Positions 3,102 through 47,968 of a stretch of DNA of 64,000 bases are shown piece after piece (within the stretch, counting starts at the first letter, position 1; each line of letters starts with the position of its first letter). The notes beneath the pieces are model-generated. The model searched no databases, had not been told where the DNA came from, and worked only from the letters and a program-made list of their open reading frames with translations. This DNA comes from an uncultured Chloroflexia bacterium (GTDB lineage Bacteria; Chloroflexota; Chloroflexia; Thermomicrobiales; Thermomicrobiaceae), in NCBI GenBank assembly GCA_963739715.1, contig CAVUBN010000014.1:16791-80790 (forward strand), in the 5' to 3' direction. Position numbers and translations under genes: made by a program.

Positions 3102-4934
3102 ATGGGATTACCTTCGAAGAGAAATCAATTCAGAAACTCAACACGTTATCCGGTTCTCATCATGCTCGTAGCGATGATCGTGGGACTAGTTCCCTTCATG
3201 GCGGTGCCGCCGGTGGCCGCCGCTGGAGTGGTCGGAACGGGGACCGCGGCCAGTTGCACCGACGCAGCTCTCGACCGAGCCCTCGCTGGAGGAGGGCATA
3301 TCAGCTTCAACTGTGGCAGCGTGCTGACTACGATCATGATCACCCGCACCATTGCTATTCATCACGACATAGCGATTGACGGTGGTGGGCTCATTGCGTT
3401 GAGCGGCGAAAACGTGCATTTAGTCATGAGCATTGAACGTGGCGCGCACGTGAACCTGAAAGGGCTGACTATCGAGGACGGGCACGGTCTCGACGGTGGT
3501 GGGATCTTCAATTTCAACGGAATACTGACTATTAAGAATTGCAAGTTCCTTAATAACAAGTCGCTACGGGGAGGAGCGATCTACAACTGGACGCGATCGC
3601 AACTCCGGATCACCGGCTCCTTCTTCAATGATAACCACGCGGTCGCTCGCGCCCATCACCCCAATGCAGAAGGCGGCGCGATCTTCAACGCTCCAGGAGC
3701 TACTCTGGGCGTCGAAGGTACCACGTTCGCAAAGAACGATGCGTATCTGGGTGGCGCCATCTTCAGTGGCGCTCGATCCTCAACGCGAATCAACAACGGA
3801 ACCTTTCAGGCGAATCACGCTGGTCGGGAGGGTGGTGCCATCTGGAATCAGGGCAACATCAAGATCGCGCAGAGCCATTTCACCGAGAATCACTCAGACG
3901 ATCTCGGCGGAGCGATCATGAACACCGGTCATGGCGATCCTCCTGGACTTCCATCCGTCTATACAGGACACATGACGATCGATCACTCAGAACTGAGCAG
4001 CAATTCATCTCATCTATACGGTGGCGCTGTCGAGAATGACGGGATCATCACTATTACGCACAGCACGATATCCGGTAACTCTTCTGAGGGAGGAGCTGGC
4101 GTGGCCAGCTTCGGTAGCGCCACACTTGAGTACGACACAATAACAGGCAACCGCGCGACCGCGTATGCTGGCGGCGTTGGATTCAATGATCCCCATACTG
4201 GCGGGTCAATCGCCTTTAGCACGATCAGCGGAAATTCGGCCGGCTCTGGAGGTGGAATCTACGTCGGGCCAGGCGTCGGCTTGGTCATTAGCTCATCGAC
4301 CGTTACGACAAATACGGCCGTTCACATCGGAGGCGGATTGTATATAGACCGCTACACAGCCGGTGATTTGGCGGGCAACATCGGATCAGTGGATTTCTGG
4401 AACAGCACGATGTCGGGAAACTCTGCTGGCGACACGGGCGGCGGCATCGAATCTCGAGGGAGCCTAGACATCGAATCAAGCACGATCGTCGAGAACAGGG
4501 CACCAACTGCCGCCCAGTTGGACGATTCTTGCGGACACTGCGGCATCCCCCGGGGCCTTACGGACGGGCCCATCCACCTTCATCCGCGGATACTCCAGAT
4601 GCTGGATACGATCATCGCACAAAGCCCGCCTGGAGAAGACAACTGTCGCATCACCTACTATTGGACCGATATGGGCCACAACCTCAGCGACGATCGCTCC
4701 TGTTTCGCCACGGTCAGTGGGTCAGCATCGACCGATCAGGTGGTGTCGTCGGTCATGCTTGGTCCCCTAGCCGACAACACCGGCCCAACACAGACGCATC
4801 TCCCACAGTTTGGCAGCCCGGCCATAGACCATGGCACCTGCAAGTTTGAAGAAGATCAGCGAGGCGTCGCTCGCCCACAAGGTGGAGGATGCGACATCGG
4901 GTCGGTTGAAGCCGCGAAGCTGAACAAACCCTAG
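3102..4934 (+). CDS. Secreted right-handed beta-helix repeat protein (Pmp-type GGAI-FxN repeats, choice-of-anchor-Q-like C-terminus)
   Basis: Signal-anchor LIMLVAMIVGLVPFMAVPPVAAA. Many GGAIFN/GGAIYN/GGAIWN/GGAIMN repeats. C-terminal DQRGVARPQGGGCDIGSVEA motif. Confidence 0.8.
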   Translation: MGLPSKRNQFRNSTRYPVLIMLVAMIVGLVPFMAVPPVAAAGVVGTGTAASCTDAALDRALAGGGHISFNCGSVLTTIMITRTIAIHHDIAIDGGGLIALSGENVHLVMSIERGAHVNLKGLTIEDGHGLDGGGIFNFNGILTIKNCKFLNNKSLRGGAIYNWTRSQLRITGSFFNDNHAVARAHHPNAEGGAIFNAPGATLGVEGTTFAKNDAYLGGAIFSGARSSTRINNGTFQANHAGREGGAIWNQGNIKIAQSHFTENHSDDLGGAIMNTGHGDPPGLPSVYTGHMTIDHSELSSNSSHLYGGAVENDGIITITHSTISGNSSEGGAGVASFGSATLEYDTITGNRATAYAGGVGFNDPHTGGSIAFSTISGNSAGSGGGIYVGPGVGLVISSSTVTTNTAVHIGGGLYIDRYTAGDLAGNIGSVDFWNSTMSGNSAGDTGGGIESRGSLDIESSTIVENRAPTAAQLDDSCGHCGIPRGLTDGPIHLHPRILQMLDTIIAQSPPGEDNCRITYYWTDMGHNLSDDRSCFATVSGSASTDQVVSSVMLGPLADNTGPTQTHLPQFGSPAIDHGTCKFEEDQRGVARPQGGGCDIGSVEAAKLNKP

Positions 4935-37872: not shown

Positions 37873-38781
37873 ATGAATCGGGCTTCTCGACTCCGCCGCA
37901 GCAAACCGTCGATTTCCCACGAGAATACCCAGCCGTCGTTGGCCGAGCCTTTCACGTCTCTCACCGCACCACCTGGTTCAGCGCCAAACGCTGCGCCTCT
38001 CTCGCCCGCACCGGAAGGGCTAAATGGGTCTCCTGGCTACGAATTCGGGCAGATCTCGATCAACCCACCTGGCCAGGCGCCAGAAGCTGGGACCTCGCAT
38101 CTAGAACCTGGACCCAGAATCCAGCGTCAAACGCAGATTGAGATAGAGGGATCAACAGCGTCTCATCCGATGGGTCCCGAGGGTGGCGCCATCGACGCCA
38201 CCGTGCGCGATCGGATTGATGGAGCACGCGGCGGAGGTGCACCGCTCGACTCTGCAGTGCGTACAGAGATGGAACCACTCTTCCAGCACGATTTCGGGAA
38301 GGTTCGGATCTTCGCGGATGCCGAATCTGACACGCTTAACCGACAATTCGGGGCAACCGCGTTTACGACCGGCAGCGATATCTTCTTTCGCCCCGGCGCC
38401 TATAACCCTGCGAGCCAGCAAGGACGCGAACTCCTGGCGCATGAGCTGACCCACGTCGTGCAGCAATCCCCAGCGTCAAATGGCGTCCCGCAGGTTGTGA
38501 CCTCAGCGACAGATGTCCATGAACAGGCTGCCGACACGGCTGCACGCCAGGTGGCATCAAACACTCGCTCTGCGAAAATATCGAACATTCCCACGTCCGA
38601 CTCTGCGACCACGACCTGCTCGTCCGGCGCAAAGCATCGACAGACCTTGACGGAATGGCCGAAGCAGGCGGAGCGCAAGCCCTCTCTGACGAAAAGCGAG
38701 AGCGGGCAAATAACACGGAACCACCTATCCAGCGGGTCCCAAATGTGTCCGATGTTCGCGCGGCGCAGAGAACTCGCATAG
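37873..38781 (+). CDS. DUF4157-domain protein (zincin-like HExxH)
   Basis: LDSAVRTEMEPLFQHDFGKVRIFADAESDTLNRQFGATAFTTGSDIFFRPGAY...LAHELTHVVQQ. The last ~90 codons look compositionally odd. Confidence 0.75.
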   Translation: MNRASRLRRSKPSISHENTQPSLAEPFTSLTAPPGSAPNAAPLSPAPEGLNGSPGYEFGQISINPPGQAPEAGTSHLEPGPRIQRQTQIEIEGSTASHPMGPEGGAIDATVRDRIDGARGGGAPLDSAVRTEMEPLFQHDFGKVRIFADAESDTLNRQFGATAFTTGSDIFFRPGAYNPASQQGRELLAHELTHVVQQSPASNGVPQVVTSATDVHEQAADTAARQVASNTRSAKISNIPTSDSATTTCSSGAKHRQTLTEWPKQAERKPSLTKSESGQITRNHLSSGSQMCPMFARRRELA

Positions 38782-38808
38782 ACGAGATAAGAAAATGGCG
38801 AGGTCAAT

Positions 38809-39577
38809 ATGCATGAGGGAGCGGGTGCTGGCGATGCGCCTTCACGGCTAGCCGAGGGACATGTCGTTCTCGCTAAGATAGCGGCGAATGAAACGGCAAT
38901 TAGCCAGCTCGACGATCATCCATCACCGGGAGCGAGCAAGGCCGGAGCGTTGGGATCTTGCCTCGACGCGATAGCCGAAGTAACGGTAGATCTAGAGGCT
39001 AAAGCCCATCACAGAGGTTCGTAATGCGAGTTTAGGAAGAGCGTGATGAGCGCGTCGAAAAGGCGGGAAGAGCGCGAGGTCGAAGATCGTCAAATTCATT
39101 AACGACGCACTGCTCGAAATCCAACCCCGCACGGTTGGCATGATCAACGCAGTCGCAAAACAAAGGCGACCACTCACGTTTGCTTATTCAAAAGCCGCCG
39201 GTGCCGAACACCAGATGCAAGGGTTCCATTTCCGGCCAAGGCGCTGAGATCATTACGGCGCTAGACAAAGCAGCGAAGGCATTCCATCAGAAGATTCAAA
39301 CCGCTACACCAGCCATGTTCCAGGAAGTCCTTACCGAGCGCTTTGCTGGCATGGGAGGCCAATATGTTGACCGCTTACGCAAGGTGTCTACGAAAACGCT
39401 CATATCTATCTGAATGCTCGGGTCAAACATGATGGCGATTCCTGGACCATCGATACGATTGATGACGCATGGGAACTGAGAACCAACGCTCCGAAGGCGG
39501 CTAATGTTGCTGCCAGCCTTAGAGCAACGCCCATCAGAACCCGGCGGACCGACTTCGGGGGGTATTCCGAACTATGA
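38809..39577 (+). pseudogene. Degenerate coding region: protein-like segments that hop between three frames
   Basis: Segments 38809-39024 (frame 1), 39050-39247 (frame 2), 39180-39413 (frame 0), 39371-39577 (frame 2). GC looks lower than in the flanks. Confidence 0.3.
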
Positions 39578-39874
39578 GCCGAACCGTTCTTCCATGCGAA
39601 CGGCGGTTGGGGCTACCAGTGCTCTCTGCAGCATCTGCGAATCCGCTCATACGGGACGTCGCGGGGGTCGGCGAGGGCGCGGCAAACGTAGGAATCAATG
39701 CTACCGTAGACTGAAGCGATCAAGCCGATGCAGCAGTATCGCCAGGAGGTCGACCCGAATGTCGCGAAGCACTAGCGCAAGCTATGGACCTGCGGATGGA
39801 TACAGGGATGCCAACCTCTGCCGGTGGCGCAGCCCCAACACCGAGGAGGGCAAACCAAGTTGGATGTAGCGGCG

Positions 39875-40249
39875 TCAATGCGTATTGTGGTATGAGATGG
39901 ATTCCCAGCGCGTCGCGCTGACGTCGTCATGGCGTAGCACGCGCGGAGCAACGCGATCGATACGCACGATTAGCCCGCAGGCCGGGTCAGGACAGGTGAC
40001 GCGGGCATCGCTCTCCATCCAATCGGCTGGGTGATTCTGTCGCTGCTTGGCGGGCAGGAGCGGCAGAACCGAATTGAGCGCGTAGAGGCAGAAGTCGGCG
40101 TTGTCCGGAAGCGAGAGCTTGCCGCTGCGCAGGTGGAAGCGATCGCCGAGAGACATGGCGCAGGTGCACTCACCGTTAATCTCCTCAACGACGACATCCA
40201 GATCGTAAAGCGTGAATTCATCTTCACGCCGCGTCTCGTCCTGGCCCAT
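39875..40249 (-). CDS. TIGR04076-like small Cys-containing protein
   Basis: ATG 40249 behind GAGGGAG. CTCAMSLGDRF...FCLYALNSVLPLLPA...VTCPDPACGLIVRIDR pattern. Confidence 0.7.
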   Translation of the reverse strand: MGQDETRREDEFTLYDLDVVVEEINGECTCAMSLGDRFHLRSGKLSLPDNADFCLYALNSVLPLLPAKQRQNHPADWMESDARVTCPDPACGLIVRIDRVAPRVLRHDDVSATRWESISYHNTH

Positions 40250-41501: not shown

Positions 41502-42953
41502 TTATCCCCGCGCTACGTCCGCCAGGTATTGCGCGCGATTGAGCGGATTCAATCCGATGCGAGTTCTGACTGGCACGTCACCGGTCACCGAAACGTGCCC
41601 TGCAAAAGTTGACATCCAGCTTCCATCTCCACGAGTCAAAGATGGAAGCTGTTGCTCGACGGCACGTAGCTCCACAGTGGGAATCTCACAGATAACGCGG
41701 TATGACACGCCTTCAAGAAACGCATTTCGGATGGTCGCACGCGCGTTCACCAATGCTCCGCAGACTGCCCCAAACGTATCCTCCGGAATTTCGAGATCAA
41801 ACTCCTCGACCGGCTCACAGACCTTGGTCCCCGCAGCACGCAAGGCCTGCATCAGCACAAGTGGAGTCAGCTTACGGAAGTCTCCGGCAGTACTCAACAC
41901 CGAGTTAAATCCCGCGGAAGTGAGCGTGACGATACAATCGGTCACCTCCCAGCCATACAATCCCTGAGAGAACGTCTCGTATACCGTCTCCTCGATGGCA
42001 CGGTAAAACGCGAGTGGCAACGACCCGAGATCACGAACATAGCGAACGCCGCTCCCGGGTTCGGCCGGCTCAACGCGAAACGCGACCGTCGCATAGAATG
42101 GATTTGGGGCCTCGAAGATGATCTCGGCACACTCTCCGGTTCCAACCGGACGCTCGATGCAGATTGTCTGGCTGGGTCCGAACGTCACGCCAACGCCATA
42201 TTCTCGCGAAAGCGTCTCCTGCACGACCTCCTTCTGGACCTCGCCATAGAGACGAATCGATATTTCTCCCTCTTCGTTGCGTTGGCGCAGCGAAATGAGT
42301 GGATCTTGTTCCGCAAGTTCTTCGAGTGCCGCTCGTAATTGCGTGACGTCGTTCAGGTCAACCGGGCGCACAACGCTTTCCAGAGACGGCTCTGGAAACA
42401 TCGAGGTGATCTCTCCAACATCCGATTCGTCGACACCGATGCGGTCGCCGATACGTGCTGAACGGAGCCCATGTAAGGCAACGATTTCCCCGGCACTCAC
42501 CGACTCCGTTGGTGAGTCTGTTCCCGCAGCGAAGCAATCAATTCCGGTAATACGCTCGTCAACCTGCTGTATCTCACTGAATACGTCGCGACGCCGTAGC
42601 GCCACACGCTCTCGCACCGCCAGACTTCCCGCGAAGAGCCGGACATAGACGATCTTCTCTCCAGAAGCCCGGCGGACGATCTTGAAGACTTCACCGGAAA
42701 CCGGAACGTCGTTCTCTCTCCCAGCCTCAGGGAACCACTCCTCAATCCCAGCTAAGAGTTCGGGGACACCGGCGCCGGTAATCGCCGATCCGAAGAAGAC
42801 TGGAACGATATTGCACGCCCCTACCTGTTCCCGCAGCTCTGCCCGTAGAAACGAGCTGTCCAGATGCCCTCCGGTACGATCGAACTCCTCGATCACGTTC
42901 TCGCTTGTCTCAGCGAGAAGATCGATCACCGAGTCTCGCCAGCTCGGGCTCAT
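41502..42953 (-). CDS. Tet(M)/Tet(O)/OtrA-type ribosomal protection GTPase, domains II-V (second ORF of a split gene)
   Basis: VPVFFGSAITGAGVPELL, EF-G-like domains. Overlaps the G-domain ORF by 44 nt in another frame. Confidence 0.85.
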   Translation of the reverse strand: MSPSWRDSVIDLLAETSENVIEEFDRTGGHLDSSFLRAELREQVGACNIVPVFFGSAITGAGVPELLAGIEEWFPEAGRENDVPVSGEVFKIVRRASGEKIVYVRLFAGSLAVRERVALRRRDVFSEIQQVDERITGIDCFAAGTDSPTESVSAGEIVALHGLRSARIGDRIGVDESDVGEITSMFPEPSLESVVRPVDLNDVTQLRAALEELAEQDPLISLRQRNEEGEISIRLYGEVQKEVVQETLSREYGVGVTFGPSQTICIERPVGTGECAEIIFEAPNPFYATVAFRVEPAEPGSGVRYVRDLGSLPLAFYRAIEETVYETFSQGLYGWEVTDCIVTLTSAGFNSVLSTAGDFRKLTPLVLMQALRAAGTKVCEPVEEFDLEIPEDTFGAVCGALVNARATIRNAFLEGVSYRVICEIPTVELRAVEQQLPSLTRGDGSWMSTFAGHVSVTGDVPVRTRIGLNPLNRAQYLADVARG

Positions 42954-43473
42954 CGCGATTCGATTCGACGACCTCGGCAGTCAAATCACCGATCCCAATG
43001 GGGATATTCATCGGCACGACGCGCAGATTCAGCTTACGGCCAATATCCCCCAGAAGTGGCTCACCCCGTGCGCCGAGACGATCGATCTTGTTGACGAAGA
43101 TCAGCATCGGGAGATTTGCCGCGCGGATGGCCCGCGCGAGGCGACGGGTCTGCGGCTGCACGCCCTCCACGGACGAGACGACCAGCACGATGCCATCGAG
43201 GACGCGCAGTGATCGCTCAACCTCGGCGACAAAGTCTCCATGGCCGGGAGTATCGATCAGATTGACTTTAAGGTGGTGAAGCTGAAAGGAGACCACCGCG
43301 GATTTAATAGTGATTCCACGGGATCGTTCCAGATCCATCGTGTCGGTTTGAGTCGTGCCTTTGTCGACACTCCCGACCGTCTTAATCACACCAGTTTCGA
43401 AGAGGATACGCTCAGTTAGGCTGGTTTTACCAGCGTCTACGTGCGCCAGGATTCCGATATTGACAATCGCCAT
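42910..43473 (-). CDS. Tet(M)/OtrA-type ribosomal protection GTPase, G domain (first ORF of the split gene)
   Basis: MAIVNIGILAHVDAGKTSLTERIL, SVDKGTTQTD, DTPGHGDF, NKIDR. Very close to the OtrA/TetM N-termini. Confidence 0.88.
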   Translation of the reverse strand: MAIVNIGILAHVDAGKTSLTERILFETGVIKTVGSVDKGTTQTDTMDLERSRGITIKSAVVSFQLHHLKVNLIDTPGHGDFVAEVERSLRVLDGIVLVVSSVEGVQPQTRRLARAIRAANLPMLIFVNKIDRLGARGEPLLGDIGRKLNLRVVPMNIPIGIGDLTAEVVESNRDEPELARLGDRSSR

Positions 43474-43641
43474 GCACCACTCTCTCGTTGAAGACCATTC
43501 CGATTGCTGGATTCTTCAACGATTGCCGCATGGGACTCTCCTTCTGTGTACGCAAGGACATCAACGTCAGCCGGCGGTATCACCATATGCGCCTCAACAC
43601 GACGCGCCGTAGACCAAGAGATCAGACCGTGCCGCATTCTA
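43474..43641 (-). promoter_or_regulatory. Promoter (-10 TAGAAT) and 5' leader with leader-peptide ORF and 9-bp-stem hairpin, copy 1
   Basis: -10 at 43636-43641, RBS GAAGGAGAG at 43536-43544, leader ATG 43531, hairpin CGTTGAAGA-N18-TCTTCAACG at 43486-43521. Duplicated at 47447-47614. Confidence 0.5.
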
Positions 43642-43701
43642 GCAGCGTGGCACGTGATGGCGCTACTATGGTTAGCGATCGCACATCATGTGACCGTAGT
43701 G

Positions 43702-45492
43702 TCAGACCAGCGAAACCGGATCATCCGCATCGTGCCACAGGGAACGCATCTCGGCGCAGGTTTCCAGCAAGAAGGCCAGCGTGCCCTCAGCTTCGACACG
43801 ACCTTCCTTCAACACGACGATATGGTCGGCACGGCGCAGCGCAACACGACGATGAGACACAGCCAGGCACGTCACGTCACCACTCGCCAGCAGGCGCTCC
43901 CACAAGACACGCTCCGTCTCGACATCCAGCGCACTCGAGAGGTCGTCAATCACCAGCAGTTCGGCGCGGCGCACCAACATGCGTGCTGCCGCAGTTCGCT
44001 GCACCTGACCACCGGAGAGCTTGACGCCGCGCGTGCCGACCGGAGTGTTCAATCCGTCCTCCAGTGTCTGCACGTCCTGCTCCAGAACAGCACCACGCAC
44101 GGCGGCGGTCAGCGCAACTGGGTCATCGGGTAACCCCAGGAGAATGTTCTCCTTGAGCGTTTCGCTGAAGAGACGTGGCACCTGCGCCGTATACGCCGCT
44201 CGCGGCGGCAGGAAAAACGAGGCCGGATCGTCTACGATCTGGCCATTCCAGCGAATCTCGCCTGCCTCCCGGGGCAGCAAACCCAAAAGAGCCCGCAAGA
44301 GTGTTGTTTTACCTGAGCCAACACGTCCCGTCACGACCGTCAGCGTTCCTCGCGGTAGCCGCAAATCCACCGCTTCGATACCGCTCCCCGACTGACGGTA
44401 GCGATAGGTCAAGCCGCGCGCTTCCACAACGACCAACGATTCACTGGCATCAAGTGCTGGTGATGGCGACAGGGTCGGTAGAGGGCCGCGTAGATATAGC
44501 GGAGTTGGCGCCAACAGGGCAGCCGGTGGCGCGTCTCCCAACAAGGCGAACATGCGTGAGAACGCGACGCCGGTCTGCTGGTAGTGAGCCAGGAAATTGC
44601 CAAGCCCTTTAGTGAACCCGGCAATGAAACCCAGGTAGGAGATAAACAGGACAAAGTCGCCCACGGTTAAGCTACCGCTGCGCAGGCTTCCGGCGGCCAA
44701 CAACATGATGAGACCGGTGCCTATGCTCACCGCGTTGGCCGTGATAGCGTCCAGAGCCTGCGTCATCAGGCGATCAGAGAGCATAGCGGCCCGGCGCTGC
44801 TCGTTCAGTCGCCGGAAATGGGCCACGATGCGCTCTTCGGCGCCGGCCGCCTGCACCGTTTGGACCGCACCCAGGATATCGCCGATGGCTCCGGTGACCT
44901 GACTTGTAGCCTGGCTGCTGGCGGCACGGTAACGACCAAGCGCGGTGCTGGCACGTCGTGCGATGACTACTACGACCACGAGGGGCAGGAAGACAACGAA
45001 CGTCATACGAGCGTTGATATGCAACAGCACCAGGAACGCCACGATGGCAAACAGACCCGTGCCGAGAATGTCGTCGGCCCAATCCAGGTTGTCCTCGGCC
45101 TCGTGCGCATCGTCGCGAAAACGGCTGATTGTCTCCCCAATGGAGAAGGGAAGCGCAGCGGCGCCCGGTCGATCCAGGACAGACCGCAGCAGGTTGCGGC
45201 GGAGCAGTCCACTCATGATGAACCGCATGACAATTTCGGCCAGGCCACCGGCAAGCCAGAGAGCCGCACTCACCACGGCGATTACGACCAGCATCACGAT
45301 TAGTCCGGTCGTGCCAACGCGAAGGTGCGCCTGACCGGTGAGCGTATCGAAGAAGGCTCGGGCGATCAGCCCCGGCAGCAGGGGCGACAGGTGAATTAGA
45401 CTCCACAATACCGCGTGGGTCAGGGAGATCCGGGGCGAGTAGCGGACCATTGCCAGGAGGTTGCGCCAGGTCGACCGCTCTCGTTCCTTCAT
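43702..45492 (-). CDS. ABC exporter, fused permease/ATPase (half-transporter B)
   Basis: 6 TM helices plus [31 protein letters not shown]. Confidence 0.9.
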
Positions 45493-47240
45493 GAGGAGAC
45501 CTCCTCAGCGGCAACCCTCAATAATCCCGCAAAGTGTGAGGTGGGGTCAGCCGCGAGGTGACCTCGCGGCCCGTGCTCCCGAACCTGCCCGTCCTCCAGA
45601 ACAAGAATGTCATCCGCAAAGGCAATCGTGGACAGCCGATGTGCGACAACGATGCCAGTTCGGCCCTCAAGCAGCCGTCCCAACGCGGTGTGCACCAGCC
45701 GCTCGGTCGCTGGATCAAGGCGCGAAGAAGCTTCATCTAGGATCACCAGGTCCGGATCATGGAGGAAAACACGCGCACAAGCCAGCACCTGAGCCTGCCC
45801 GGCGGAGAGCCCAATCCCTCCGGGACCTAGCATCGTGTCCAGCCCACCCGGTAGCTCTCGCAGCCAGCCGGCTAGGCCGAGCGTATCCAGCACAGCGCCG
45901 ACCCGGTCATCCGGTACGCTACCGTCGAAGAGGGTCAGGTTATCGCGCACGCTCGCGCTAAAGAGATGCACCTCCTGAGTGACCAGCCCGATGCGCGCAC
46001 GAACCGCCGCGATGCGGACGGTACGCAGATCGACTCCTCCCAGCCGCACCTCACCGGCTTTCGGATCGTAGAAGCGCGGGAGTAGCCGTGTGAGCGTTGT
46101 CTTCCCGCTACCGGTTCGGCCCACCACACCCAGCACCCGTCCCGGCTCCAGGCACACACTAACGTCGCGCAGCACCAGATTGCCGTTTGCGTAGCCAAAT
46201 GAGACACCGTCGAGTTCCACGGCCAGCGGACCGGGTGGCAACGAGACGCCGTGTCCATCGACGAGACACGGAGATGTGCTTAGTAGCTCCTCGATACGGC
46301 CTATGCTGGCGTCCGCCTGTTGAAGGTCCTGCGCTTCTCTGCGGATCTGCTCGGACGGCTGACGCAACACCGCCGTGTATTGGAAGACCAGATAGACGGT
46401 GCCGATCGTTAGCTGGCCATCCCTGTACAGCATGGCACTCAGGGCAAAGGCGACTGCCGTGCCAAGCGCAAACAGCCCTTGACTGGTGGCGACCATCGCG
46501 TAACCCCACATCTCAGCCTTGAGCGTCACGGCCAGCCACGACCGCATCACCTCGGCGCATCGGCGCAACACGAAGGCACCCGCTCCGCTCGATCGAACAT
46601 CCTCCATGCCGGCCAGATATTCACCCAGAAAGCCATAGAAATTGGCACTGGCCTGGCGTTCTTCAGCCCAGGATGGGGTGGCAACGACCCGGATTCGCAG
46701 CATAGCCGTCAAGCCCAACACCACAAAGGCAGTCAGGCCCAGACCAATCCGCCAATCCACGTGATAAAGGAGCCCGAGCACCGCAAGTATCAAGATTCCG
46801 TTGCCGAGCACATAGACCACAAACCGAGAGAAGAAGCGGGCCAGTGTGGCGACATCCCCATCGACCCGCTCGATCAGCTCACCCGGCGTATGGGCATTGT
46901 GAAACGATGCATCCAGTCGCAGCAGATGTGTGATCAGGTCGGCACGTAGCGTGTTGGTCGCCGTCCAGGCAACATTCTCGGCCAGGTACGTTTCGGCAAC
47001 GGCCATACCCTGTCCCGCCAGGGAAAGACCCATGGTCAGCAGCGCCAGGAAGATCAGACCGTGTAGAGCCCCGCCGGAGGTAGCCTGGTCGATGAAGCGG
47101 CTCGCCAGCAACGGCGTGACTACCTGAGCGCCGATGAGACCGCCGAGGACAGCGGCGAGAAGAATCATCCGCAACCAGTACGGCCGCAGGTAGTGGGCTA
47201 GCAAGCGCCAGTAACGATGCAGTTCCTGAAAAGGATTCAT
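45489..47240 (-). CDS. ABC exporter, fused permease/ATPase (half-transporter A)
   Basis: [35 protein letters not shown] overlap with the downstream partner. ATG 47240 overlaps the stop of the upstream relic ORF. Confidence 0.9.
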
Positions 47241-47446
47241 GGGAAGCACCTCGTCTCGTCACGCATACCGAGACGATCGATGGCGTTTACGAATCCGGAC
47301 ACCGTGAGATCTGAAACAACGAGCAGGTTAGACTCGGACTGGTTCGGTTGAAACCAGACCCTTACCGGTTCACTGAGGTTATGTTGTGTGAGACAGGTTC
47401 TACCAGCGTCTAGATGCGCTCGGGCTCCGATATTGACGATCGCCAT
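47237..47446 (-). pseudogene. Relic of the 5' end of a second ribosomal-protection GTPase gene (69 codons)
   Basis: MAIVNIGARAHLDAGRT... and FVNAIDRLGMRDE match MAIVNIGILAHVDAGKT and FVNKIDRLGARGE of the intact gene, with internal deletions. Confidence 0.7.
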
Positions 47447-47614
47447 GCATTACTCTCTCGTTGAAGACCATTCCGATTGCTGGGTTCTTCAACGTCTTCT
47501 GCATGGGATTCTCCTTGGTTATGGTGCCAATGTATCGAAACCGTACAACCTGCGTTGTGGGTCCGTCAAAAACGACGCGCTCTCGAGACGAAACATGAGA
47601 TCTTCTCGGATTCT
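47447..47614 (-). promoter_or_regulatory. Promoter (-10 TAGAAT) and 5' leader with leader-peptide ORF and hairpin, copy 2
   Basis: -10 at 47609-47614, RBS AAGGAG at 47511-47516, leader ATG 47504, hairpin at 47459-47494. The -10 and ATG sit at the same spacing as in copy 1. Confidence 0.5.
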
Positions 47615-47968
47615 AGCAGCATGGCACGCGTCCGCGCTACCGTGAGCGGCGACAGCGTATCCTGACAGAAGTGTTACGCGGGTGAAATCAGATCCTCAAC
47701 ATCCTGATGGCGTTCAGTGATGGTGTCACCACATACGAGTACTTTGAGTTCTGGCGTGCGGGAGAGTGCCTGGAGGACCGCGTCATCTCGACCCGGCTAC
47801 AGCTCTGAACCTGATCACATAGTGACAGGAAACGTTTTGAAGAAGCGCTTCATCCCCAGCCGAGGATGGAGCGCTCACCGGGCTGATCGACGACTGCGAC
47901 ATAATCGACGCCTCGTGAGCAAGGGGAGTTGCCACGGTCTCGCGACGCTCCGCTGTGGGTACCGTTCG

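Follow-up and report, generated by a model that had tools for sequence, protein, structure and literature searches.

A 64,000-nucleotide (nt) stretch of DNA from an uncultured Chloroflexia bacterium (contig CAVUBN010000014.1, positions 16,791 to 80,790; the window below) contains two leaders that appear to be copies of one conserved cis-regulatory device. Leader 1 precedes a translational GTPase gene of the OtrA/Tet(M) kind, and leader 2 precedes the relic of such a gene, followed by the ABC half-transporters ABC-A and ABC-B. Comparison with other genomes indicates that the leader is very probably functional and conserved, and that the upstream open reading frame (uORF) within it is very probably translated as well. 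Ribosome-sensing translational attenuation is the best explanation of the two leaders, one that we hold with slightly more belief than doubt.

The gene order on the minus strand, given correctly in a preliminary description of this DNA, is confirmed by the sequence and the domain calls: leader 2, relic ORF, ABC-A, ABC-B, leader 1 and the GTPase, which resembles ribosomal protection proteins (RPP). The parts are listed below; AUG2 is the start codon of the GTPase gene, SD1 the Shine-Dalgarno (SD) sequence of the uORF, and P3 a hairpin within the uORF.

~47640-47447, minus strand: leader 2.
47610-47640, minus strand: promoter block of copy 2, GTAGCGC...GCGTGCCATGCTGC TAGAAT, with the -10 at 47615-47610 and the extended-10 TG at 47618-47617.
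47517-47609, minus strand: middle of the 5' untranslated region (5'UTR) of copy 2, diverged from copy 1, with the islands GCGCGTCGT and TTTCGATA kept.
47400-47516, minus strand: core of copy 2, with SD1 AAGGAG at 47516-47511, uORF2 at 47504-47400 and the P3 arms at 47494-47485 and 47468-47459.
47446-47237, minus strand: relic ORF of the GTPase gene, 69 codons, opening at the retained AUG2 (47446-47444); no Pfam match.
47240-45489, minus strand: ABC-A half-transporter of 583 amino acids (aa), with ABC_membrane and ABC_tran domains; its homologs likewise have 583 aa.
45492-43702, minus strand: ABC-B half-transporter, 596 aa, with ABC_membrane and ABC_tran domains; its start overlaps the ABC-A stop (ATGA).
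~43666-43474, minus strand: leader 1.
43636-43666, minus strand: promoter block of copy 1, GTAGCGC...ACGTGCCACGCTGC TAGAAT, with the -10 at 43641-43636.
43544-43635, minus strand: middle of the 5'UTR of copy 1.
43427-43543, minus strand: core of copy 1, with SD1 AAGGAG at 43543-43538, uORF1 at 43531-43427 and the P3 arms at 43521-43512 and 43495-43486.
43473-41502, minus strand: OtrA/Tet(M)-like translational GTPase, with a +1 frameshift in the window.

Both leaders follow the same plan. An extended -10 promoter (TGnTAnnnT) is followed by ~100 nt of 5'UTR, then by a strong SD and a uORF of 34 codons; the hairpin P3 and a second helix, P2, are predicted in addition. SD1 (AAGGAG) lies 6-7 nt before the ATG of the uORF, which opens 58 nt upstream of AUG2, crosses it in another frame and ends 46 nt inside the GTPase gene. 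The stop codon of uORF1 (MRQSLKNPAIGMVFNERVVHGDCQYRNPGARRRW, 34 codons) is a TAA built by the P-loop codons GGT-AAA of the GTPase, and that of uORF2 (MQKTLKNPAIGMVFNERVMHGDRQYRSPSASRRW, also 34 codons) is a TAG. The SD of the main gene (SD2) is GAGAGAG in copy 1, at ~43485-43479, where P2 is predicted to pair 43534-43527 with 43476-43470, that is, the AUG of the uORF with the AUG of the GTPase.

The preliminary description had reported a shared promoter block at one end of the leaders and, at the other, a leader ORF with a strong ribosome-binding site (RBS) and a hairpin. Formal alignment bears this out: both ends are homologous, the promoter blocks being identical at 26 of 31 positions and the section from the SD to GTPase codon 17 at 105 of 122 (a 142-nt repeat at 83%). 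A search of the window with a covariance model of the core detects exactly these two copies (E = 2.6e-21 and 4.1e-20). Some details had to be amended. The TAGAAT box of copy 1 is indeed at 43636-43641, while that of copy 2, placed at 47609-47614, occupies 47610-47615; the distance from the -10 to the ATG, given as 163 nt in both copies, is 163 nt in copy 1 and 164 nt in copy 2. The 'A' of the shared block '...N-ACGTGCCAY' is not common to both copies, as copy 2 reads GCGTGCCAT. The middle of the leader has diverged as described (62/92 identical, near the ~60% of unrelated flanks), yet two islands, GCGCGTCGT and TTTCGA(C/T)A (TTTCGAT/TTGAT in the window pair), persist there in both copies and in the orthologs. 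RNAalifold gave no consensus structure for this middle part; the islands might bind a protein or pair with a distant segment.

No sigma-70 match was obtained at threshold in a promoter scan of the region, and the extended -10 promoter came from the comparison of the leaders. The whole window gave no match to Rfam 15 at gathering scores, and a search in E-value mode with leader 1 and one Streptomyces leader returned chance-level matches only.

From conserved ends and a diverged spacer, the preliminary description had concluded that the leaders are functional. This conclusion stands, with its supporting evidence coming from other genomes instead. The same layout is found in GTPase relatives that were identified by protein similarity (L001, L002, L081, L084, L167, L170, L172 and L176; L numbers designate the loci compared): a TGnTAnnnT box, a leader of ~100 nt, an AGGAG SD, a uORF starting with ATGC at -58, a hairpin of the form GUUGAAGA-N18-UCUUCAAC, a weak SD2 (GGGAG, GAGAG or GAAAG) and GCAUGG at the gene start. 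A metagenome scan with the leader pattern gave 82 loci, with ~55 true leaders followed by a GTPase gene and ~20 chance matches in unrelated genes. More than 50 Thermomicrobiales loci carry the leader. The TGnTAnnnT box is present 44-119 nt upstream of the uORF in 49/56 related leaders, against 5% expected in shuffles. When a genome collection was scanned with a GTPase profile, at least two Thermomicrobiales loci were among the matches listed, and the distant loci served for the cross-phylum comparison. One locus, L091, was excluded from the analyses as a probable palindromic assembly artefact: it holds two inverted copies of the leader and GTPase start (1390-1434 and 4571-4616) and has several frameshifts.

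That the uORF is a translated frame is suggested by the constancy of its length and of its end. It has exactly 34 codons in the ~55 pattern-scan loci, and one codon more in the protein-found L172. Its stop in the pattern-scan loci is always a TAA or TAG made by the P-loop codons GGT-AAR. The GTPase frame under the uORF can drift freely in relic leaders, yet the stop is held at the same codon (GGT-AGA in window copy 2, GGT-AAT in L095, GGT-AAC in L110), and L103 and L134 keep it with all GTPase similarity gone. The P-loop glycine codon is GGT in 37 of the 49 OtrA-like loci (L003-L051), mostly from genomes of ~70% G+C, and in 3/29 Tet(M/O/W/Q)-like loci. This preference apparently exists because GGT-AAG makes the stop codon of the overlapping uORF, which would thereby constrain synonymous codon choice within a catalytic motif.

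Two helices are predicted in the core. P3, a hairpin of 9-10 bp, lies within the uORF, its end directly adjoining the weak SD of the main gene. In P2, the start region of the uORF (CCCAUGCG) pairs with the AUG2 region (YGCAUGG), AUGCG with YGCAU and, in addition, CC with GG. Both were recovered by RNAfold and RNAalifold, P3 as columns 43-52 with 69-78 of alignment A4. Across 51 leaders, 96.4% of the cells of P2 and P3 hold standard pairs, compared with 30-49% when the partners are slid. The ninth pair of P3, not imposed by the search pattern, is found as G-U (23), A-U (14) or G-C (10). A further structural hint that the pattern did not dictate is the NNG form of uORF codon 19 in 50 of 51 leaders, although the amino acids encoded there are of eight kinds.

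The same architecture occurs in other phyla, built from other sequences. At least 29 of the 49 OtrA-like loci have an SD-led uORF (MR.A.MS...KDMTL...RRR*) whose start lies 52-67 nt upstream of the gene, with hosts such as Streptomyces, Actinoplanes, Gaiellales, a Vicinamibacterales metagenome-assembled genome (MAG), a Mesorhizobium MAG and others. The arms of these actinobacterial-type leaders differ wholly from those of Thermomicrobiales and between subgroups (CGUCCAUGUCC/GGACAUGACG, GACUCCUCG/CGAGGACUC and others). The covariance model of the Thermomicrobiales core gave no matches in the actinobacterial loci because the sequences are too different. RNAalifold found no pairs on a MAFFT alignment of the actinobacterial leaders, which was broken by gaps; these leaders were assessed by folding each sequence and by a count on a gapless set instead. 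All the predicted folds contain a hairpin whose 3' arm bears the SD of the gene, and most also have the start-region pairing. Pairing of SD2 with the 5' part of the uORF has a mean probability of 0.74 (0.20 in shuffles), and start-to-start pairing one of 0.38 (0.05 in shuffles). In the gapless set of 13 leaders, 77.8% of cells are paired, versus 24-47% when slid. With the uORF start blocked in silico, SD2 and AUG2 become more accessible in 25 of 28 of these leaders (from 0.23 to 0.42). This recurrence across phyla would be stronger structural evidence than the Thermomicrobiales set. The Tet(M)-type loci in the sample lack the overlapping uORF and the GGT P-loop codon.

Leader 2 also records the history of the locus. 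The preliminary description regarded it as a cassette copied before the ABC genes and proposed a comparison with related genomes to see whether the ABC pair had been inserted into a duplicated GTPase gene. Both ideas are contradicted by that comparison, and the leader of the exporter would be the remainder of an older operon. ABC-B homologs, sampled without reference to the leader, lie in the following contexts.

L167/L168, L170, L172: leader, GTPase, then after 35-38 nt ABC-A and ABC-B, in one operon.
L176/L177: one operon as in L167/L168, L170 and L172, with a TGA at GTPase codon 508.
L171: arranged as in the window.
L173/L174 and L175 (Ktedonobacteria bacterium brp13): ABC pair without GTPase.
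L178: other context.

The ancestral unit thus seems to be leader-GTPase-ABC-A-ABC-B, whose GTPase in the lineage of the window would have lost codons ~138 to the end. No 3' GTPase fragment is present downstream of ABC-B, and in the window relic GTPase codon ~137 abuts the final ~20 nt of the ancestral spacer between GTPase and ABC-A (GAGACGAGG..CCC-ATG). The relic is for these reasons most probably an internal deletion in the first gene of the older operon, not the trace of an ABC insertion. It begins with MAIVNIGARAHLDAGRT, a remnant of the G1 motif that reads MAIVNIGILAHVDAGKT in the intact gene, and retains FVNAIDRLG where the intact gene has the G4 motif FVNKIDRLG. Repeats between relic and intact gene are offset by 3973 and 4195 nt, so a net 222 nt were lost in frame between G1 and G4. 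The TGA stop of the relic overlaps the ATG of ABC-A (ATGA).

Pattern-scan loci L095, L099, L103, L110, L134, L137 and L144 have the leader with its uORF, 0-138 recognisable GTPase codons and an ABC-A 73-78% identical to that of the window; equivalents of the window relic are present in at least 6 metagenomic loci (L099, L103, L110, L134, L137 and L144). Relics with surviving similarity break off after the G4 region, where the final ~20 nt of the ancestral spacer (GAGACGAGGAG..CCC-start) take over. The deletion junction lies within a GGYGAG microhomology, which makes recurrent deletion possible, and a tree of the ABC-A N-terminus is compatible with a single or a repeated origin of the relics.

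The mean identity among the relic loci is 78% for ABC-A, 45% for the relic and 82% for the core from SD1 to AUG2 (~74% without the pattern-imposed bases); the upstream leader has 65%, near alignment background. The ratio of nonsynonymous to synonymous substitution rates (dN/dS) between L099 and L137 is 1.28 for the relic and 0.05 for ABC-A, and that of intact GTPases is 0.08-0.22. By this comparison, the relic appears to evolve neutrally. A functional small GTPase was considered as well and rejected, as the motifs have decayed and dN/dS is about 1. All relic ORFs are still open from AUG2. Counted from the first base of the start codon of ABC-A, they stop at +1 to +19 nt, always in the same +1 frame, except in L103, where the relic is fused in frame to ABC-A. 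The other two frames hold 1-4 stops each, and the net indels are multiples of 3.

In the window, a second leader-GTPase copy lies directly downstream of the ABC pair (intact in L171, frameshifted in the window), and comparison with L172 reveals no simple rearrangement path that would put leader 1 and the GTPase downstream of ABC-B. The 18-nt loop of P3, the most variable part of the core, differs at 1 position between the window copies and at 4-5 positions from the nearest ortholog. The first codons of uORF2 (MQKT) resemble those of operon-type leaders (MQAT in L172 and L134, MQLT in L095). The near-identity of the loops looks more like a gene-conversion tract, which would be the simplest reading.

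The W-to-stop TGA at codon 508 of L176/L177 (1194-3164; GLSG*NVTDC) occurs in both fetched contigs, of four that record protein P0137. This nonsense codon looks like an early stage of the decay that would have made the window relic. In L175 (AP024096.1), an ORF at ~3700-4253 (MYVQLRRSWRFLITYLKPQQGRVLL...) before the ABC pair looks like a decayed duplicate of the ABC-A N-terminus, with its end close to the start of ABC-A; only its first codons (MYVQ) remain in L173/L174. Ktedonobacteria and Thermomicrobiales share a conserved stretch of ~30 nt ahead of the ABC-A start (GCCGTTCGCGGCGAGACGAGGAGTTTCCC), which may fold into a GCCG-UUCG-CGGC hairpin. In L178 (1788-7601, Chloroflexota), the ABC pair, at 78% identity, is placed between an rsgA-like ORF and rpsF-ssb, a translation-related neighbourhood.

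The mechanism that would best account for the leaders is the following. In unstressed cells, AUG2 would be held in P2 and P3 or overrun by the ribosomes on the uORF, and the gene would be silent. Ribosomes arrested at or near the uORF start by A-site inhibitors, for example tetracyclines, would enclose the 5' arms of P2 and P3, and with these arms sequestered, SD2 and AUG2 would be exposed for initiation. For the exporter, the relic ORF would hand on the regulated initiation at AUG2, whether through translational coupling or through protection from polarity; such a relay is suggested because the leader, AUG2 and an open frame into the ABC-A start have been kept. That control acts on initiation at AUG2 seems a little better than an even bet, and it is plausible, if just short of even, that ribosome-targeting antibiotics are the signal.

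Several observations weigh against this mechanism or the data behind it. Covariation in Thermomicrobiales is weak because the leader sequences are so similar: 2 pairs have double changes, no more than in shuffles. SD2 of Thermomicrobiales lies just outside P3, so masking would depend mainly on the short P2 helix. When the uORF start is blocked in silico, SD2/AUG2 accessibility in Thermomicrobiales leaders goes from 0.34 to 0.33, no gain, and in window copy 1 it drops from 0.37 to 0.24. The search pattern itself fixed the bases ATGC, GTTGAAGA and TCTTCRACG, so that they do not vary in the scanned set; the protein-ascertained loci indicate that they are nonetheless real. The relic frame would be open by chance with P = 0.16-0.36 per locus, which makes its openness suggestive in aggregate only. 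Attenuation leaves the mid-leader islands and the block around the -35 unexplained. Finally, the label 'resistance' is itself an inference for both modules, because the GTPase scores below the curated cut-offs and the ABC pair has no curated equivalog.

Other mechanisms can be weighed on the same evidence. The uORF could act on the transcript, its translation and that of the relic setting termination by Rho or another attenuator, with RBS unmasking secondary or absent. Such arrangements exist, as toiL-topAI ties translation repression to Rho termination (PMC12121999) and tet(M) and bmrB employ transcription attenuation (bioRxiv 10.1101/2021.03.24.436905; PMC4191407), and an open, translated relic ORF (69-143 codons) before ABC-A is what protection from polarity requires. 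This is nevertheless unlikely, as no intrinsic terminator is predicted in either leader (the region has 6 terminator-like matches, with 4.8 expected from shuffles) and AUG2 is retained with its pairing partner after GTPase decay, pointing to initiation control. A DNA- or RNA-binding protein reading the promoter block and the islands, with the uORF only a constitutive tuner of translation, would explain why the -35/-10 block is common to both window copies and why GCGCGTCGT and TTTCGA(C/T)A stand apart from any predicted RNA structure. It would leave the fixed uORF length, the retained stop and the GGT codon bias unexplained, and no regulator gene adjoins the leaders in the window, in L171 or in the other contexts, where the neighbours vary between genomes; we consider it improbable.

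Positive coupling, in which translation of the uORF melts P2 and P3 and is needed for constitutive expression with no drug sensing, agrees with an AUG2 that is predicted to be paired in free RNA, a weak SD2, and a uORF that crosses AUG2 and ends 46 nt downstream at a conserved site. Ribosomes crossing AUG2 in another frame should compete with initiation there, and the downstream genes are of resistance type, which are usually inducible, leaving this explanation quite improbable. There is very little to be said for the similarity of the leaders being the functionless, neutral residue of a recent segmental duplication, an outcome that the preliminary description had also argued against. The copies are only 4 kb apart and their uORF loops are nearly identical, but the layout of leader, relic and ABC pair is common to lineages whose ABC-A is ~75% identical, so that related genomes do not show the mere residue of a very recent duplication. 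The relic has also decayed next to a core that is conserved, and the leader is kept in the orthologous loci and its architecture across phyla. The leaders therefore appear homologous and under selection, and for this reason both modules would stand behind the same kind of control device, as had been proposed. Since the GTPase and the ABC pair share one operon and a single leader in relatives, their functional link seems stronger than had been guessed.

Ribosome-sensing attenuation has counterparts in known systems. In E. coli topAI-yjhQ, tetracycline makes ribosomes stall on the start codon of the uORF toiL, opening a masked RBS (PMC12121999). As proposed here for P2, RNA structure hides the main RBS and stalled uORF ribosomes free it. 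The toiL sequence is unrelated, its genes are of the toxin-antitoxin kind, its uORF does not overlap the main ORF, and an involvement of Rho has been shown. The tetQ-rteA-rteB operon of Bacteroides CTnDOT is under translational attenuation and likewise has a short leader ORF before an RPP-type GTPase that heads an operon, with a constitutive transcript and tetracycline-released translation (PMC3809561). There is no detectable sequence similarity between the tetQ leader and the window leaders, whose 34-codon uORF runs over the main start to a stop within the gene, and the partners in the window are ABC half-transporters in place of downstream regulators. The tetQ leader peptide is reportedly only 3 aa long.

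The orf12 leader of Tn916 tet(M) resembles the window leaders in having a putative peptide upstream of a tetracycline-inducible RPP gene (bioRxiv 10.1101/2021.03.24.436905). The role of this peptide is disputed, and the tet(M) leader has a rho-independent terminator, for which the window leaders have no room because the uORF overlaps the gene start. For the exporter, a parallel in control is bmrB-bmrCD, a heterodimeric ABC exporter induced by ribosome-targeting antibiotics via a translated leader ORF (PMC4191407). That system uses transcription attenuation and its leader is not derived from another gene, whereas the 'leader' of the window exporter consists of a leader plus the 5' end of a decayed GTPase gene. 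Another inducible operon, mef(E)/mel (Mega; PMC10019249), unites efflux with ribosome protection. The protector there is an ABC-F ATPase, the pump belongs to the major facilitator superfamily, the specificity is for macrolides and the sequences are unrelated. Inducible control of Mega is said to act through a single leader.

No description of this leader was found in the literature searched, and the class appears to be undescribed. To our knowledge, the regulation of environmental OtrA-type ribosomal protection genes is essentially unstudied. A uORF attenuator is a known kind of device; its retention through the death of the original gene is unusual. We suggest tentatively, with rather more doubt than belief, that OtrA-like GTPase genes in at least four phyla share a leader class with an overlapping uORF and start-start pairing that senses start-codon occupancy, that is, A-site blockage; that in Chloroflexota this sensor governs the GTPase and an ABC module; and that after GTPase loss the first codons were long kept as a translated bridge to the exporter.

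If confirmed, the leader would be a small, widespread, sequence-definable control element for environmental OtrA-type ribosomal protection genes. The tie between a target-protection-like GTPase and a conserved heterodimeric ABC exporter, by operon or by leader, would give a clue to what both act on. The relic loci may be read as a natural deletion series in which the promoter, the 34-codon uORF, the hairpin, the second start codon and the open frame are indispensable, evidence that usually comes from mutagenesis alone. For annotation, a 69-codon 'hypothetical protein' before an ABC operon can be a regulatory gene fossil.

The GTPase has the five-domain architecture of EF-G (GTP_EFTU, D2, EFG_III, EFG_IV and EFG_C were all found), and its best NCBIfam matches are RPP models, at about twice its EF-G score. 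The intact L171 protein scores 652 bits on NF012153 (tet_protect), below the cut-off of 775, and 673 bits on NF000120 (Otr(A)), below the cut-off of 900. As these scores fall below the curated NCBI cut-offs, the protein is best called RPP-like rather than a confirmed tetracycline resistance protein. Hundreds of relatives with 655-657 aa are found at 70-80% identity, from Thermomicrobiales wherever they are named. In the window, one extra A near 42950 breaks the gene into two ORFs, of 187 and 483 aa. The sibling assembly L171 is 99.78% identical over 11.6 kb, with the same layout and an intact GTPase of 656 aa; the extra A therefore looks like an assembly error of the long-read type or a very recent strain variant, and a programmed frameshift was rejected on the same ground.

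The ABC genes are two adjacent half-transporter genes with overlapping ends (ATGA), each encoding a transmembrane and a nucleotide-binding domain. The pair reached no curated NCBIfam drug-exporter equivalog, all matches being far under the cut-offs: 137-165 bits on the Tet(46)A/B models (cut-off 1250) and 149-234 bits on the SmdA/B models (cut-offs 746-845). ABC-B homologs that are 76-84% identical are widespread in Chloroflexota, including Ktedonobacteria.

An ICMT-like methyltransferase gene (48586-47969, minus strand) precedes leader 2, and a gene for a luciferase-like oxidoreductase comes after the GTPase in minus-strand order. A second 1-nt indel relative to L171, near 51113 in the window, looks like an error of long-read assembly or a very recent strain variant. 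A gene at ~38200-40000 (L171 11644-13476), a few genes downstream of the GTPase, encodes a protein of 610 aa with the eCIS_core domain of contractile injection systems.

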